A stretch of DNA of 64,000 nt, from NCBI GenBank assembly GCA_944386655.1, contig CALXBX010000004.1:2595-66594 (forward strand). The letters run 5' to 3'. The notes below the pieces were generated by a model that was not told where the DNA came from, ran no database searches, and saw only the letters and a list, made by a program, of their open reading frames with translations. The first letter of the stretch is position 1; every line of letters begins with the position of its first letter. Position numbers and translations under genes: made by a program. Positions 1,737-61,952 of this stretch are shown one piece after another. The stretch comes from an uncultured Clostridia bacterium (GTDB lineage: Bacteria > Bacillota > Clostridia > TANB77 > CAG-508).

Positions 1737-2762
1737 TTATATACTTTCTAATTGTGGATCCATAGAAAGTGTTATGGTTGGATTTGTAATTATCTTTTTC
1801 TTTTTCGTTTTCTTTTCATTTAATTTTAACAATTCTGTTAACTGTTTTTGTTGTTTTTTACCAAAAAATGAATAGATTTCTTTTTCATCTTTTTGAACAA
1901 TTCCTTTTATCTTTTTATTCATTTGATTTAGCTCTTTCTTTAATTGTTTTCCAATATTTTCTAATCTAGAGGCATCTGCATAAGCTGTTAATAAAATTTT
2001 TGCCAAATAATATTCATTGTATTTTTTTAATTCTTTATATCTTCTTTCAATATAATCATATCTATTATTTACAAGTTCCATATAGTCCAAAATGGTTTGT
2101 TCTGTATTATGGTTCACTATACTATCTGCTCTATTGAAATAATAATATTCTGGTTCTCCAGTTACTACTATTTTATTGCATTTTTCTAACAAATAAAAAG
2201 TAGTTCCTATATCTTCATATTTTTTACCTACAGGATATTGTATTCCATCAAACAATTCTCTTTTATATAACTTATTCCATGCATAACTTTGAATGTTCTT
2301 ATCTAATAATACTTCTTTTAATATTTGCAATTTATTATATTCTTGAATACCTTTATTAGCATTTTTTATTGTATTTTCGTTCCCTATTACATTATAGAAA
2401 TTGCAAATACATACATCTGCCTTTTTTTCTGTTATAATTTGATGCATATGTTCATACATGTGCTTATCTATCCAATCATCACTATCTACAAATCCTATAT
2501 ATTGTCCTTTTGCCTTACTAATGCCTAAATTTCTAGCCGCAGAAAGCCCTTCGTTTTCTTTATGTATCACTTCTATTCTACTATCTAACTTAGCATATCG
2601 ATCACATATTTTCCCACAATTATCTGATGAACCGTCATCTACTACTAGTATCTCGTAATTTTCAAAAGTTTGATTCGTTACACTTTGTATTGCTCTTCCT
2701 ATATATTTTTCTACATTATAAGCAGGAATAATTACACTAAATCTTATCTCTTCCTTATTCAA
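1737..2762 (-). CDS. Family 2 glycosyltransferase
   Basis: The N-terminus FSVIIPAYNVEKYIGRAIQSVTNQTFENYEILVVDDGSSDN...FVDSDDW shows typical GT2 (GT-A fold) DxD-type motifs. Confidence 0.85.
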   Translation of the reverse strand: MNKEEIRFSVIIPAYNVEKYIGRAIQSVTNQTFENYEILVVDDGSSDNCGKICDRYAKLDSRIEVIHKENEGLSAARNLGISKAKGQYIGFVDSDDWIDKHMYEHMHQIITEKKADVCICNFYNVIGNENTIKNANKGIQEYNKLQILKEVLLDKNIQSYAWNKLYKRELFDGIQYPVGKKYEDIGTTFYLLEKCNKIVVTGEPEYYYFNRADSIVNHNTEQTILDYMELVNNRYDYIERRYKELKKYNEYYLAKILLTAYADASRLENIGKQLKKELNQMNKKIKGIVQKDEKEIYSFFGKKQQKQLTELLKLNEKKTKKKKIITNPTITLSMDPQLESI

Positions 2763-43639: not shown

Positions 43640-43679
43640 TGCAATTTAAGGAACGTCCCTAAGTTGCACCTAAGTTGCA
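43640..43679. repeat. 29-nt quasi-palindromic element (copy a) plus an 11-nt half-repeat
   Basis: TGCAATTTAAGGAACGTCCCTAAGTTGCA followed by CCTAAGTTGCA. It contains the TAG stop (43670-43672) of the giant ORF. Confidence 0.9.
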
Positions 43680-51722: not shown

Positions 51723-51760
51723 TGAACTTTAAGGAACGTCCCTAAAGTTCACAAAGTTCA
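51723..51760. repeat. 29-nt quasi-palindromic element (copy b, arm variant) plus a 9-nt half-repeat
   Basis: TGAACTTTAAGGAACGTCCCTAAAGTTCA followed by CAAAGTTCA. The half-repeat supplies the TGA stop of the histidine kinase (51758-51760). Confidence 0.9.
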
Positions 51761-53767
51761 TTTTTTCTGTCTTTCAAATTCTATAATCACTTTGAATAAA
51801 TCTCCATCTAGATAAATTTCAAACCTTCCACCTTGTAGGTTGGTTAAACTCTCTGCAATGGAAAGACCCAGGCCGCTTCCTTCTGTATTTCTAGAGGCTT
51901 CTCCTCTCACAAATCTTTGCTTTAGCTCTTCTGCTGATATATTTAGCTTTTCTTTGGATATATTTTTCATTTGTATTTGTACTTTTCCTTCTACTAAGAA
52001 TACATCTATATAAACTCTGGAGGATTCTAATGCGTATTTTACAATATTACCATATAAGTTTTCTAGTACACGGTATAGGTATCTGCTATCTGCTTTAATT
52101 AGGCAGTCTTCTTTTGGCATATATGTGTTTAGCTCTAAATGTTTTTCTTCAAATTTATCTTCGAATTCGCCAGATACTTGTTTGATTAGTTCTTTTACAT
52201 CTAATATTTCCATGTTCAATTTTATATTGCCAGAAGATGCTTTAGAGGCTTCTACCAAATCCTCTGTTAGCCTTTTTAATCTTTGTGATTTATTATCTAA
52301 TACCTCTAAATATTCTTTTGCTTTTTCGCTTGGCATTTCTTCTTTTTTTAGCAAGTCTACGTAGTTAATAATAGAGGTAAGTGGTGTTTTGATATCATGA
52401 GATACATTGGTTATTAATTCTGTTTTCATTCTTTCACTTTTCAAACTTTTTTCTACAGCACTTGAAAATCCTTTTGCTATATCATTCACGTAGGTGGCAA
52501 TTTGTTTGAACTCTTTATCTAGTTTTGTGGTATCGATGGTAACTTCTTCTTTTCCTTCATAAATGTCTTTTAGTGCCTGCTCTATTGTTTTTATTTGTTT
52601 CATGTATTGAGCGATTTTATAAAAGGAAAATCCCCAAAAAACTGGTAACAATATTATCCAAAATCCATCATGGAAGAATAGGACGATAAGGAAACTAATG
52701 AAAATAATTCCTACATAAACAATGGCTACCTTGCTCATAATAGAGGTATTCGAGAAGATAAGGTTCTCCATATTTCTTTTTATCCAACGATAAATTTTGG
52801 CAATCCATAATTCTTTAAATAGTGTTTTGGCTTTTAATCTTTTTATTGTGGTAGTTGCTACAGTAGCTAAGATGGCATAACCAACAAAATAGCTGATAAT
52901 ACTAAGCGATAAAAACACTATATTCAAACTTGTGCTTGTTACTGCATTGGCCACTACCATTACTATTCCTAAAAGTAAAAATGCAATGATGCATACTAAT
53001 TCATAGGAAATTTTATCTAAGGAATTTAAATAGATTCCTTCTGCTCCTTTTTTGTGTCCTATCGCCCAAATGAAATACATAACAATTAAAATCAATAATA
53101 CACTTGTAATAGGGATGGCATACAAAGGAACTTGTTTTAGACCAATCATGGTTTCGTAAAGTGTTTTTTCTAAATAGTAACTATTTCCTACTTCTACTTG
53201 TTCTTCATCAAAATCAATATAAAAATCTAAACCTAATTGTTTAAGTTGTTCTAATTGGTCTAATCCATAATCATAACGTATATTATATTCGTCAATTTTT
53301 TCTATATCGGTTTGTATGTTTCCCGATTCGTAATACCAATAATATTTTCCTTGTTTTATATTTTCTATTTCTTGCTCATAATTGTCTGTTTTTATATTGG
53401 TAAAGATAATTTGACTTTGCCTATCTACAATAATAAAACGAAAATATTGATAAAATCCACTATAATAATCGGATGATTGATAATAAATTTTTTCTTCCCC
53501 ATCTTGTATTAAAGAATAACTAGTATCACTCACTCGAAAAGGAATTTCAGCATACATCCTTGATATACTATAATAAATACTACGTATTCTTCCATAATAA
53601 TTATTGGCAAAATTGGTGGTTTGATAATAATCATTCACGGTCATATCATAAGTATTCTCTCTTTGGAATGATAAATAAATGCCACTAAGCATCAAAATTA
53701 AAAATAAGATAGGTGTCAATACGTAGCATAATACTTTTAAACTGGCAGATTGTTTTAATTTTTCCAC
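51758..53767 (-). CDS. Sensor histidine kinase (large extracytoplasmic domain, multiple TMs, HisKA + HATPase_c)
   Basis: H-box VSHDIKTPLTSI, N-box ENLYGNIVKYA and G-box GSGLGLSIA. GTG start with AAGGAG RBS. Confidence 0.9.
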   Translation of the reverse strand: MEKLKQSASLKVLCYVLTPILFLILMLSGIYLSFQRENTYDMTVNDYYQTTNFANNYYGRIRSIYYSISRMYAEIPFRVSDTSYSLIQDGEEKIYYQSSDYYSGFYQYFRFIIVDRQSQIIFTNIKTDNYEQEIENIKQGKYYWYYESGNIQTDIEKIDEYNIRYDYGLDQLEQLKQLGLDFYIDFDEEQVEVGNSYYLEKTLYETMIGLKQVPLYAIPITSVLLILIVMYFIWAIGHKKGAEGIYLNSLDKISYELVCIIAFLLLGIVMVVANAVTSTSLNIVFLSLSIISYFVGYAILATVATTTIKRLKAKTLFKELWIAKIYRWIKRNMENLIFSNTSIMSKVAIVYVGIIFISFLIVLFFHDGFWIILLPVFWGFSFYKIAQYMKQIKTIEQALKDIYEGKEEVTIDTTKLDKEFKQIATYVNDIAKGFSSAVEKSLKSERMKTELITNVSHDIKTPLTSIINYVDLLKKEEMPSEKAKEYLEVLDNKSQRLKRLTEDLVEASKASSGNIKLNMEILDVKELIKQVSGEFEDKFEEKHLELNTYMPKEDCLIKADSRYLYRVLENLYGNIVKYALESSRVYIDVFLVEGKVQIQMKNISKEKLNISAEELKQRFVRGEASRNTEGSGLGLSIAESLTNLQGGRFEIYLDGDLFKVIIEFERQKK

Positions 53768-53781
53768 TTTTTCTCCTTTCT

Positions 53782-53850
53782 CTCTGCAATTTAGGGACGT
53801 TCTTTAAATTGCAATAAGTGCAATTTAAAGAACGTCCCTAAATTGCAGAG
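53782..53850. repeat. 69-nt perfect palindrome made of two inverted copies of the element (copies c1/c2)
   Basis: CTCTGCAATTTAGGGACGTTCTTTAAATTGCA-ATAAG-TGCAATTTAAAGAACGTCCCTAAATTGCAGAG. The 32-nt arms are exact reverse complements. It starts 10 nt after the RR stop and ends 3 nt before the HK RBS. Confidence 0.95.
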
Positions 53851-53860
53851 CATTATTTCT

Positions 53861-54568
53861 TTATTCTTCTATTTTTTCTATTTTATAGCCAATTCCCCAT
53901 ATTACCTTTAAATATTTTGGTTCTTTGGGATTAATTTCTATTTTTTCTCGAATGTGTCTTATATGTACAGCAATTAAGTTTTCTGCTCCATAAGCTTCGT
54001 CTTCCCATACATTTTCATAAATTTGTTCTATCGAATATACTTTTCCTTTGTTTTTTAGTAAGAACTTTAGAATATTATACTCTGTAGGTGTTAGTTTTAC
54101 TTCTCTTCCTTCTACAGTTACTTGTTTTGTGCTGTCGTCTAGCCTTAGCTCTCCACTTTTGTAAATATAATCTTGTTCTTCTTCCTTTTTACTTAAAGAA
54201 CCTAAAGAAGTATACCTTCTAATTTGGGAATTTACTCTTGCAATTAGTTCCAATGGATTAAAAGGTTTTGTAACATAATCGTCTGCTCCTGTATTTAAAC
54301 CTTCTATTTTATCATAATCTTCTGATTTTGCAGAAAGCATAATAATAGGAATTCCTTTTTCTTTTCTTACTTCTTTGGCTACTTGCATACCATCCATCTC
54401 TGGCATCATAATATCTAGTATCAACAAATGGATTTCTTTTTCTTTGATAATCTGCATGGCTTGCTTTCCATTATATGCTTTTTCTATTTCATACCCTTCT
54501 CTACTTAAATAAATTTCAATGGCTTTTACAATTTCTTTATCATCATCACATATTAAAATACGGTACAT
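53861..54568 (-). CDS. OmpR/PhoB-family response regulator
   Basis: Receiver domain (ILICDDD...ILDIMMPEMDG...LSAK) and a winged-helix C-terminus (LTPTEYNILKFL...IWGIGYKI). Confidence 0.9.
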   Translation of the reverse strand: MYRILICDDDKEIVKAIEIYLSREGYEIEKAYNGKQAMQIIKEKEIHLLILDIMMPEMDGMQVAKEVRKEKGIPIIMLSAKSEDYDKIEGLNTGADDYVTKPFNPLELIARVNSQIRRYTSLGSLSKKEEEQDYIYKSGELRLDDSTKQVTVEGREVKLTPTEYNILKFLLKNKGKVYSIEQIYENVWEDEAYGAENLIAVHIRHIREKIEINPKEPKYLKVIWGIGYKIEKIEE

Positions 54569-54597
54569 TTCTTCTTCCCCTTTCTTAGATATTTTCT

Positions 54598-54625
54598 AGT
54601 ATAACATAGTTTTCTTAAGAACCAA
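54598..54625 (-). promoter_or_regulatory. Candidate promoter of the RR-HK operon
   Basis: Minus strand: TTGGTT (-35), 16-nt spacer, extended -10 TGtTATACT, about 30 nt upstream of the RR start. Confidence 0.4.
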
Positions 54626-54648
54626 GTATAAATTTTATTAACATTTTA

Positions 54649-54677
54649 TGAACAATAGGGACGTTCCTTAAAGTCCA
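54649..54677. repeat. 29-nt element (copy d), inverted partner of copy e
   Basis: TGAACAATAGGGACGTTCCTTAAAGTCCA. Its reverse complement differs from copy e at 1 of 29 positions. Confidence 0.9.
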
Positions 54678-54745
54678 TAAAATAAAAATTCTTATAATTA
54701 AAATAAACGCTCCAAATGGCACACTTTTCTCAAAGGGAAAAGCCC

Positions 54746-54774
54746 TGAACTTTAAGGAACGTCCCTATTGTTCA
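54746..54774. repeat. 29-nt element (copy e)
   Basis: TGAACTTTAAGGAACGTCCCTATTGTTCA. It encodes the last six codons (NNRDVP) and the TAA stop of the AI-2E transporter ORF. Confidence 0.9.
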
Positions 54775-55900
54775 AAGCTTTTATTTTTCTGGTGCGGTAA
54801 TCTATATATTCATCTAAAGATACTTTTATAATAGCACTTATTGGAACAGATAAGAAAATTCCTATCATGCCAAAGTAAGCACCTCCCACTGTTACTGCAA
54901 ATATGACTAACAACGGGTTTATTTTTAAGGAGTTCCCTACTATTTTTGGATTAATAATATTGGCATCTATTTGTTGTAGAATAATAACTACCACTAGCAT
55001 CCAAATGGTTTGTTCTATTCCACCTGTGAAGAAGGTGATAATTCCTGCTATGATAACTGCTATAATGGCTCCAATGTAGGGTATCATATTGAATAGTCCT
55101 ATCATAAACCCTAGCAGTGGTGCATATTTTATGCCCATAATACTCATAGCAATGGAAGTAAGTATTCCTACCACAATGGCATCTATAAATTGCCCTGCTA
55201 AAAATTTGAAAAATATTTGATTAGAACGATTAAAATATTTATTCATATTACGATAGATACGTGGTCTGAAAGTGACTCCAGCTAATTTTTTAAAGAATTG
55301 TAAGATACTACTTCTACCAATTAACAAATATACGGATACGATAATTGCTACAAAGGTATTTACAATACCATTGGCAAAGCTAACTGCTCCTTGCAAATAT
55401 TGTGTTAGTGCTTCTACATTTAAAATTTCTTTAATATCTATACTTTGAATAGCATTCATAATTCCTGTCATTACATTTGTTTTAAAGAAATTGTCTTCTG
55501 GTAAATTATCGATGGCATGAATAGCCATATCGTAATAACTATGGAAGTTATTTGCCAAGTCTAAAATACTTTCTAGAATTGGTGGAATTATCCATGTAAA
55601 TAACAATATAATTAATAGCAAAGTAATAAGATATACTGTGATGACACTAAATGTTCTTGCTTTTTTGCGAATCCATTTATTTTTTGTTTTTTTATAAAAT
55701 TCTTCGACTTTTCTGCATGGCAAGTATAAAATATAGGCAATTAAAAGTCCTATAAAGAATGGTGCTAGCACTTGAAATAATGTACCAATCCAGTTTGTAA
55801 TTTCTCCAAAATTATCAAATATTTTATAGACAAAAATGACGGCTACGGCAAAAGTAAACCAATACAGCCATTTTGTCCACGTTCTAGGCTTTTTCTCCAA
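54752..55900 (-). CDS. AI-2E family transporter (PerM/YhhT-like permease)
   Basis: 382 aa with about 8 TM helices and the typical C-terminal GGxxFGxxGxxLxxP pattern (GGAYFGMIGIFLSVPI). Confidence 0.8.
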   Translation of the reverse strand: MEKKPRTWTKWLYWFTFAVAVIFVYKIFDNFGEITNWIGTLFQVLAPFFIGLLIAYILYLPCRKVEEFYKKTKNKWIRKKARTFSVITVYLITLLLIILLFTWIIPPILESILDLANNFHSYYDMAIHAIDNLPEDNFFKTNVMTGIMNAIQSIDIKEILNVEALTQYLQGAVSFANGIVNTFVAIIVSVYLLIGRSSILQFFKKLAGVTFRPRIYRNMNKYFNRSNQIFFKFLAGQFIDAIVVGILTSIAMSIMGIKYAPLLGFMIGLFNMIPYIGAIIAVIIAGIITFFTGGIEQTIWMLVVVIILQQIDANIINPKIVGNSLKINPLLVIFAVTVGGAYFGMIGIFLSVPISAIIKVSLDEYIDYRTRKIKALNNRDVP

Positions 55901-56850: not shown

Positions 56851-56899
56851 TGCAATTTAAGGAACGTCCCTAAATTGCAAGGAACGTCCCTAAATTGCA
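56851..56899. repeat. 29-nt element (copy f) plus a tandem 20-nt partial copy
   Basis: TGCAATTTAAGGAACGTCCCTAAATTGCA followed directly by AGGAACGTCCCTAAATTGCA. It abuts the TAA stop at 56900-56902. Confidence 0.9.
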
Positions 56900-61813: not shown

Positions 61814-61842
61814 TGCAATTTAGGGACGTTCCTTAAATTGCA
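61814..61842. repeat. 29-nt element (copy g), exact inverted partner of copy h
   Basis: TGCAATTTAGGGACGTTCCTTAAATTGCA. It directly abuts the acpS RBS. Confidence 0.9.
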
Positions 61843-61912
61843 TTTTCCTTTCTATGAACTTTGTTAAATATCCACTTTTTACATTAAATATAGTCTATTC
61901 ATTTTTTATTAC

Positions 61913-61952
61913 TGCAATTTAAGGAACGTCCCTAAATTGCACCTAAATTGCA
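61913..61952. repeat. 29-nt element (copy h) plus an 11-nt half-repeat
   Basis: TGCAATTTAAGGAACGTCCCTAAATTGCA followed by CCTAAATTGCA, 4 nt after the TGA stop of ORF 61957..63192. Confidence 0.9.

Follow-up and report, generated by a model that had tools for sequence, protein, structure and literature searches.

The window analysed here is a stretch of 64,000 nt from the genome of an uncultured Clostridia bacterium (G000, a 1.58-Mb assembly of 30.6% GC in 74 contigs, i.e., a fragmented metagenome bin). It contains a two-component operon in which a response regulator (RR) gene precedes a histidine kinase (HK) gene (Table 1). A repeat search of the junction recovers a perfect palindrome of 69 nt, whose two 32-nt arms (53782-53813 and 53819-53850) are 100% complementary and enclose the 5-nt centre ATAAG. 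The distances given in the original prediction were confirmed, with 10 nt (53851-53860) between the RR stop codon and the palindrome and 3 nt between the palindrome and the AAGGAG Shine-Dalgarno (SD) sequence; the 5' end of the unit at 53785..53813 lies 6 nt from the latter. Gene-strand RNA of the palindrome folds into a single 32-bp stem with a minimum free energy of -52.9 kcal/mol (z = -12.9 versus shuffles). The stem is not followed by a U-tract, the mRNA strand reading AGAAAGGAG immediately after it, and there is no terminator-like site across 53500-54800. Classical intrinsic termination, one of the roles initially suggested for the stem, is therefore unlikely. A scan of the whole window against Rfam gave 0 matches at the gathering score. 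A promoter-like match at 53880-53852 was discarded, its score of 9/12 being at noise level (10 sites found versus 5.9 +/- 3 expected).

Table 1. Coordinates of the RR-HK junction and of related repeat units in the window
Feature	Position	Strand	Remarks
Palindrome: doublet, both REP-like units convergent and of one subfamily	53782..53850	.	repeat search and fold
Unit TGCAATTTAGGGACGTTCTTTAAATTGCA, 29 nt	53785..53813	+	antisense to operon; carries minority GTTCTTT variant
Second 29-nt unit, identical	53819..53847	-	sense to operon; 13 nt past RR stop
10 nt AGAAATAATG (gene strand)	53851..53860	-	filled alleles only
AAGGAG, HK Shine-Dalgarno	53773..53778	-	plus-strand CTCCTT; 5 nt before GTG
RR gene, OmpR-family	53861..54568	-	Pfam Response_reg and Trans_reg_C; stop 53861-53863
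HK gene, GTG start, intact	51758..53767	-	Pfam HisKA and HATPase_c
Subfamily B unit	51723..51751	-	sense-oriented, 6 nt past HK stop; G009 has a unit at the equivalent place
Unit 5' of RR gene	54649..54677	+	partner of 54746-54774, sharing its private ACAAT variant; this genome only
Unit supplying last codons and stop of AI-2E transporter	54746..54774	-	orthologous in G045, G009 and G044
Full unit and 20-nt partial duplicate	56851..56899	-	3' of G5/3D gene stop
Convergent pair of one subfamily (units at 61814 and 61913)	61814..61941	.	29/29 identical; unique 70-nt spacer
Unit and 11-nt partial duplicate	43640..43679	-	after a gene stop

Each arm of the palindrome contains a 29-nt unit with the consensus TGCAATTTAGGGACGTTC(C/T)TTAAATTGCA, which matches six places in the window when up to 3 mismatches are allowed, where shuffled sequences are expected to yield 0.00. 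The suggestion that two element copies in inverted orientation make up the palindrome was borne out, and the element is dispersed at the scale of the genome: G000 carries 117-123 copies of the unit on more than 40 contigs (about 1 per 13 kb), with 88 occurrences of the exact 16-mer core and 0 of the reversed control. A single unit is a 13-bp hairpin with a 3-nt loop and folds with -14.7 kcal/mol in the orientation that forms a G.U pair and -10.8 kcal/mol in the other, which has an A.C mismatch. The copies fall into two subfamilies of about equal size, A and B, with compensating changes in their basal stems (TGCAATTT...AAATTGCA in A, TGAACTTT...AAAGTTCA in B), while the apex TAGGGACGTTCCTTA / GGGACGTTCC is nearly invariant. 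Covarying stems combined with a near-invariant apex are a signature of selection on the hairpin form. A reading of the palindrome as an operator for the OmpR-type RR was ruled out, given that the unit is dispersed some 120 times and its stems covary. A literature search with the core GGGACGTTCC returned unrelated matches only. Across 117 oriented units, no flank position is conserved in the manner of a GTAG/CGTC-type foot tetranucleotide; the CGTC motif of the unit sits at the apex of the hairpin, not at its foot, and the commonest flanking 5-mers (TTAGG, AACTT, and TTCCT) are fragments of partly duplicated units. Such partial direct duplicates, comprising an arm or the first 20 nt, adjoin full units at 56880-56899, 61942-61952, and 43669-43679, with, for instance, CCTAAATTGCA present twice. 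The unit-derived 5' flanks suggest nested insertion or slippage at fixed positions within the unit.

The units are predominantly extragenic. According to a simple long-ORF calling procedure (1380 ORFs, 85% of the genome coding), 89 are intergenic, 25 overlap the 3' ends of genes, and about 4 lie inside ORFs. The 25 overlapped ORFs take their last codons and stop from a unit, which is sense-oriented in 22 of these 25 cases; the C-terminus of the AI-2E transporter (...NNRDVP-stop) is encoded in this way, and the stop of the transposase gene described below likewise falls within a unit. In co-directional gene contexts, sense units lie at a median of 13 nt past the upstream stop codon (30 of 42 within 25 nt), and of 24 antisense units, 11 adjoin the SD sequence of the next gene, no more than 30 nt from its start codon. 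Similar placement is seen in the genome G058, where 3 nt separate the end of a unit from AGGAGG or GAAGGAG. The RR-HK doublet is the limiting case of this arrangement, a very short spacer with a unit in each of its two slots. RNA-derived contigs of two metatranscriptome runs (X22 and X23) hold units from other loci, e.g., the region of the 61913 pair, indicating that at least some units are transcribed, be it in this organism or in close relatives; the only two metatranscriptome runs with words of the RR gene do not reach the RR-HK junction and carry units of other loci only.

The way in which units combine also follows rules. Among the 36 pairs of adjacent units no more than 250 nt apart, 23 are inverted, and all 23 of these are convergent (+ then -), with 0 divergent. 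Members of inverted pairs belong to the same subfamily in 19 of 23 cases (binomial p = 0.003), and where a same-subfamily pair bears a private variant, both arms bear it (5/5 pairs: GTTCTTT at RR-HK, ACAAT at 54649/54746, AAGTTGCA on C31, and TTTGGGG on C36 and C59). Direct tandem pairs, in contrast, always mix the subfamilies: 9 of 9 join one A and one B unit (p = 0.004), in either order and 7-38 nt apart (e.g., C10:2849/2887, C12:20397/20433, and C43:2582/2632 of G000), and no direct pair of a single subfamily exists genome-wide. There is no conserved interior between paired units, the 23 pair spacers (5-133 nt) all being different, and a BLAST search with one of them returned only the self-match. 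A second tight intercistronic doublet, of mixed subfamilies, is located on C43. The ACAAT unit at 54746-54774 is found in four genomes, whereas its inverted partner at 54649-54677, with the same variant, is found in this genome alone. The gain of a partner next to a resident unit indicates that partners can be copied from, or converted by, their neighbour, and such copying or conversion accounts for the perfect symmetry at RR-HK as well as for a mirrored substitution at the same site in G045 (see below). In the sister genomes G009, G044, and G045 (L006, L007, and L005, respectively), the region upstream of RR where the partner sits here is a fast-diverging stretch, which looks like a decayed hairpin of another family (GCCAAAAGGGGTAGACCTGTTTGAC), resembling the GGGACG-type hairpins that flank related transposase genes.

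The genome encodes a single intact Y1_Tnp transposase (C43:1761-2540(-), 259 aa), with the HUH motif in the form HAH (HAHFL) and the tyrosine motif YIHNNPVKA; residues H62 and H64 of the former and Y122 are invariant in 11 homologues. The protein scores 44.5 bits against Pfam Y1_Tnp (cut-off 23) and 66.4 bits against NCBIfam REP_Tyr_transpos, below the cut-off of 80. A phmmer search against PDB sequences gave no match. For an AF2 model made from the 11 homologues (pLDDT 84), the best fold match in the PDB is 4ER8 (E 3.7e-6, TMt 0.70), a structure of the REP-associated tyrosine transposase of E. coli in complex with a REP hairpin; the TnpA proteins of IS608 and ISDra2 come next. Beyond the ~150 aa typical of core RAYTs, residues ~150-259 form a helical part (pLDDT 80-90) with weak, below-cut-off matches to HTH_Crp_2 and Sigma70_r4 (E 1e-3 to 3e-3). 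The gene is enclosed by a convergent bracket of family units, A at 1742-1770(+), B at 2582-2610(-), and A at 2632-2660(-), the first of which overlaps the gene and supplies its stop codon; unit-bracketed genes are also found in G058 and G059. Homologues in other uncultured Clostridia metagenome-assembled genomes, with 33-60% identity in the best-matching segment, have inverted hairpins of their own on either side, with different stems and GGGACG/CGTCCC in common. Very probably, this RAYT/TIRYT-type transposase copies the unit family. A second Y1_Tnp-like frame, at C23:4584-4956 of G000, contains 5 stop codons and is a pseudogene, with no family units on its contig.

The core was looked for in 60 further genomes from the same genus and order, in 40 of them with the exact TAGGGACGTTCCTTAA and in 19 with the C/T-tolerant TAGGGACGTTCYTTAA. 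Besides the genome under study with its 88 exact copies, the core was present only in G009 (20 exact, 27 C/T-tolerant), G044 (31 C/T-tolerant), G045 (54 C/T-tolerant), and G002 (2 C/T-tolerant). G058 encodes a transposase homologue of 60% identity next to queH, as in G000, and carries 49 copies of the 14-mer GGGACGTTCYTTAA, whose units nearly all occur in convergent pairs, some only 10-12 nt apart. The transposase clade is present in 34 of 42 genomes of the genus at 26-52% identity. Most congeners have 1-7 paralogues of this HTH-bearing Y1 clade but no copy of the G000 unit; each Y1 paralogue may have its own hairpin family. No copy of the transposase was detected in the unit-carrying sisters G009, G044, and G045. 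In G045 (L048, C141), comparison with C43:1742-2660 shows a clean loss of an A unit and the 780-nt gene from the interval that separates queH from the B and A units, and the two leftover units next to queH are decaying, with the mutated cores AAGAAACG and AAGGAATG. The queH neighbourhood was not found in G009 and G044, so that the absence of the transposase from these two may reflect incomplete bins. Units persist (27-54 core copies) in genomes that have apparently lost the enzyme. Given the sisters without a detectable transposase and the clean deletion in G045, the present-day mobility of the units is uncertain.

Comparison of the junction among related strains, as proposed originally, uncovered an insertion polymorphism. 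In G009 and G044, whose HK orthologues are 93% and 91% identical to that of G000, the junction is empty, with a 14-nt spacer, TAG-AGAAAGGAGAAAA(C/T)-GTG (also written TAG-AGAAAGGAGAAAAC/T-GTG). The spacer of the genome under study measures 93 nt, the additional 79 nt being the palindrome and the 10-nt AGAAATAATG, which is confined to filled alleles and arrived together with the doublet. The site is also filled in G045 (HK 94% identical), where both 29-nt units have AAGTTGCA for AAATTGCA, a mirrored difference, the loop of the doublet is ATTAT, and an additional 13-nt partial unit is present on the RR side. The AAGGAG sequence is conserved in all three sisters, and congeners with HK identity of 59% or less have ordinary short spacers and no unit. 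These alignments are best explained by entry of the doublet and the 10 nt into a 14-nt spacer in an ancestor that this species shares with one sister. The two species with a filled site both have an intact HK, which means that the insertion is tolerated at the least; survival of the doublet through a speciation event would also fit a beneficial role. AGAAA flanks a 74-nt insert on both sides (AGAAA-TAATGCTC...GAG-AGAAA-GGAG; 53851-53860 with 53768-53781), a pair that resembles a 5-bp target duplication, which is not expected of Y1 transposases; the counterpart in G045 is AAAAA/AGAAA.

Population data were drawn from Logan contigs of chicken-gut and other metagenomes, in which k=31 contigs break at the repeat, as expected. 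Contigs of 64-65 nt that span the centre of the palindrome (53784/5-53848) were nonetheless recovered from four runs (X2, X4, X7, and X9) belonging to at least 3 studies, with no differences and at a depth approximately that of the flanks. In a further run, X1, the left-flank contig joins 53784 straight to 53819 at a depth equal to that of the flank; in this allele, 34 nt (one unit and the loop) have been lost between the 9-nt direct repeats TGCAATTTA, and the sense unit 53819..53847 is kept. The palindrome is real and polymorphic in nature, and the heterogeneity that was to be sought in the reads takes the form of a single-unit allele. The view that the perfect symmetry reflects recent formation or active upkeep proved right in spirit, considering the empty site in two sisters, the substitution mirrored in both arms in G045, and the 34-nt deletion in X1.

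Small operon-embedded repeats whose long inverted arms are transcribed along with the neighbouring genes are familiar from the Correia/NEMIS elements of Neisseria and from other MITEs such as BOX, RUP, and ERIC. Repeats of these kinds form long dsRNA stems, for which RNase III processing has been reported, and alter the expression of neighbouring cistrons. Their interiors are conserved, they are accompanied by target-site duplications, and their transposases are of the DDE type or unknown. Unlike these MITEs, the RR-HK doublet consists of two 29-nt hairpin units alone, and its processing is putative. The closer likeness is to the REP/BIME elements and TnpA-REP (RayT) of E. coli and the REPIN-RAYT system of Pseudomonas, which likewise comprise short, high-copy, extragenic, and lineage-specific hairpin units (PMC2817692, PMC3116915, PMC3479197, PMC5581495). 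As in REP/RAYT systems, a single-copy Y1 HUH transposase gene is bracketed here by inverted units, inverted doublets with co-varying arms are frequent, and units occupy 3' UTRs and operon spacers. There are also differences: the host belongs to a low-GC lineage of uncultured Clostridia; there is no GTAG-type foot tetranucleotide, the conserved GGGACG lying at the apex; direct tandem pairs always mix both subfamilies; pair interiors are unique DNA, with no conserved spacer travelling with the doublet as in REPINs; and the 259-aa protein, with its putative C-terminal HTH-like domain and a score under the NCBIfam RAYT cut-off, departs from core RAYTs.

TIRtrons and their TIRYT transposases have flanking inverted repeats with the motif GGGGWSAS, which can form dispersed, dimer-organised families (Di Nocera et al. 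2013, PMC3733652), and the TIRYT equivalent is TnpA-REP subclass 2.1, whose C-terminal domain is of the DnaA-C/HTH kind (Quentin et al. 2018, PMC6006769). The C43 system appears to resemble them in having a RAYT-like Y1 domain joined to a C-terminal, putatively HTH-like region and gene-flanking inverted G-rich repeats. The G-rich motif of the flanking repeats is AGGGACGT here and GGGGACGG, AGGGACGG, or GGGGCGTC in relatives, fitting GGGGWSAS at 6-7 of 8 positions, with G and not A at position 7. Quentin et al. report subclass 2.1 genes to be free of neighbouring REP-like sequences (PMC6006769); unlike subclass 2.1 as published, the flanking repeat here is itself a hairpin, amplified to ~120 copies. 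Firmicutes are unmentioned in PMC3733652 and PMC6006769, and the only mentions of Clostridia concern the unrelated subclass 1.1 (PMC6006769) and RAYT Group 1 (PMC5581495). The HTH-bearing TIRYT/subclass 2.1 branch fits the C43 protein better than the core RAYT equivalog does, and the system is of the REP/RAYT type (TIRYT-like), in a lineage of uncultured gut Clostridia.

The best explanation for the observed repeat identity, copy number, extragenic bias, transposase association, insertion polymorphism, and pairing rules is that the palindrome is, in all likelihood, a tight convergent doublet of a RAYT-copied, REP-like hairpin repeat that was inserted in a sublineage, any regulatory effect being a side effect. 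Following the paradigm of IS200/IS605 and TnpA-REP, single-stranded hairpins would be the intermediates through which this enzyme, or an ancestor of it, mobilises the units. Inverted pairs would arise not by two independent insertions but by copying of the neighbouring unit and/or homogenisation of the fold-back, and the arms would be identical for this very reason. On the polycistronic mRNA, the doublet is predicted to fold into the 32-bp stem and would abolish the close coupling between RR stop and HK start (93 nt versus 14 nt). Perfect duplexes of this size are typical substrates of RNase III, which G000 encodes, and the stem is plausibly such a substrate as well as a barrier to 3' exonucleases. 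REPs no more than ~15 nt from a stop codon can reportedly impede terminating ribosomes, as Liang, Rudd and Deutscher are said to have found in 2015. An influence of the stem on the RR:HK ratio is plausible, and the net expected effect is probably to raise RR relative to HK. Such an effect would be a tolerated by-product of a selfish or neutral insertion, rather than an evolved switch. In E. coli, REPs within operons act as leaky terminators and as mRNA stabilisers of the upstream message (bioRxiv 10.64898/2026.03.23.713779).

Several other readings of the palindrome have to be weighed. That it is a fold-back chimera of assembly or amplification is next to impossible: perfect palindromes are a known class of artefact and the genome is a fragmented bin of 74 contigs, but centre-spanning k-mer contigs at flank depth in four runs from at least 3 studies, together with a doublet at the equivalent site in the independent species genome G045, led us to reject it. 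The original prediction favoured a dedicated cis-regulatory RNA structure, acting through processing, attenuation, or stability and selected for the RR:HK ratio or for conditional HK translation. We regard this as quite unlikely, even though the stem is very stable and placed immediately between the RR stop and the HK SD sequence, has been kept in two species with intact HK, and occurs in a genome encoding RNase III, and even though operon REPs of E. coli favour expression of the upstream gene (bioRxiv 10.64898/2026.03.23.713779). The doublet is part of a family of ~120 REP-like copies situated at unrelated genes, and it is positioned as the family is in general, with the sense unit following the stop and the antisense unit preceding the SD sequence; moreover, in G009 and G044 the orthologous operon gets by on a 14-nt spacer without any hairpin, all more distant congeners are free of the unit, a single-unit allele is in circulation, and the U-tract is absent. 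Recognition of the palindrome as an operator by a dimeric DNA-binding protein, for example by the HTH of the transposase-like protein in the role of a global regulator, is very unlikely. The nearly invariant apex GGGACGTTCC above covarying basal stems, the C-terminal HTH-like domain of the associated protein, and the many units adjoining ribosome-binding sites or stop codons would suit an operator, yet stem covariation speaks of selection on a single-stranded hairpin and not on duplex sequence, the units are strictly oriented relative to genes, and the 25 units overlapping gene 3' ends occupy no usual operator position.

Another reading is that of a classical REPIN or MITE, in which the doublet would have come preformed as one mobile unit from a donor copy elsewhere. 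This is possible but doubtful. Both arms are identical down to the minority T variant, the genomes pass from empty to doublet without a single-unit intermediate, and the units of G058 are nearly all in convergent pairs, some of them very tight; on the other hand, there is no second doublet copy with the same centre, the 23 pair spacers all differ, and the partner in the AI-2E/RR intergenic region copied a private variant of the resident unit, which points to local copying. A further scenario, which we judge unlikely, has convergent pairs of one subfamily made in place, not hopping as REPINs do, and used by the host as operon 'punctuation'. Here, the HTH-bearing RAYT-like enzyme, or template switching at the hairpin during replication, would set an inverted copy of a resident unit at the opposite end of the intergenic spacer, so that one unit directly follows the upstream stop and the other directly precedes the downstream SD sequence. 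The bracket units would then serve as a 3'-end protector and a 5'-UTR hairpin, respectively, and at RR-HK, where the two slots touch, they would yield an RNase III site uncoupling HK from RR.

If the palindrome is, as we favour, a doublet of a transposase-copied repeat, an eye-catching perfect symmetry becomes ordinary repeat biology, and a special regulatory device is unnecessary. The results document a REP/RAYT-type system in uncultured gut Clostridia with small genomes; for these bacteria, REP families linked to this HTH-bearing transposase clade are unreported in PMC3733652 and PMC6006769. At one two-component junction, four natural alleles are available, namely, empty, single unit, doublet, and doublet with a partial unit. 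This allelic series offers a clean system in which to measure the effect of a REP hairpin or doublet on the expression of a Gram-positive operon, and could reveal how palindromic doublets arise, how their arms are homogenised, and how they are lost.
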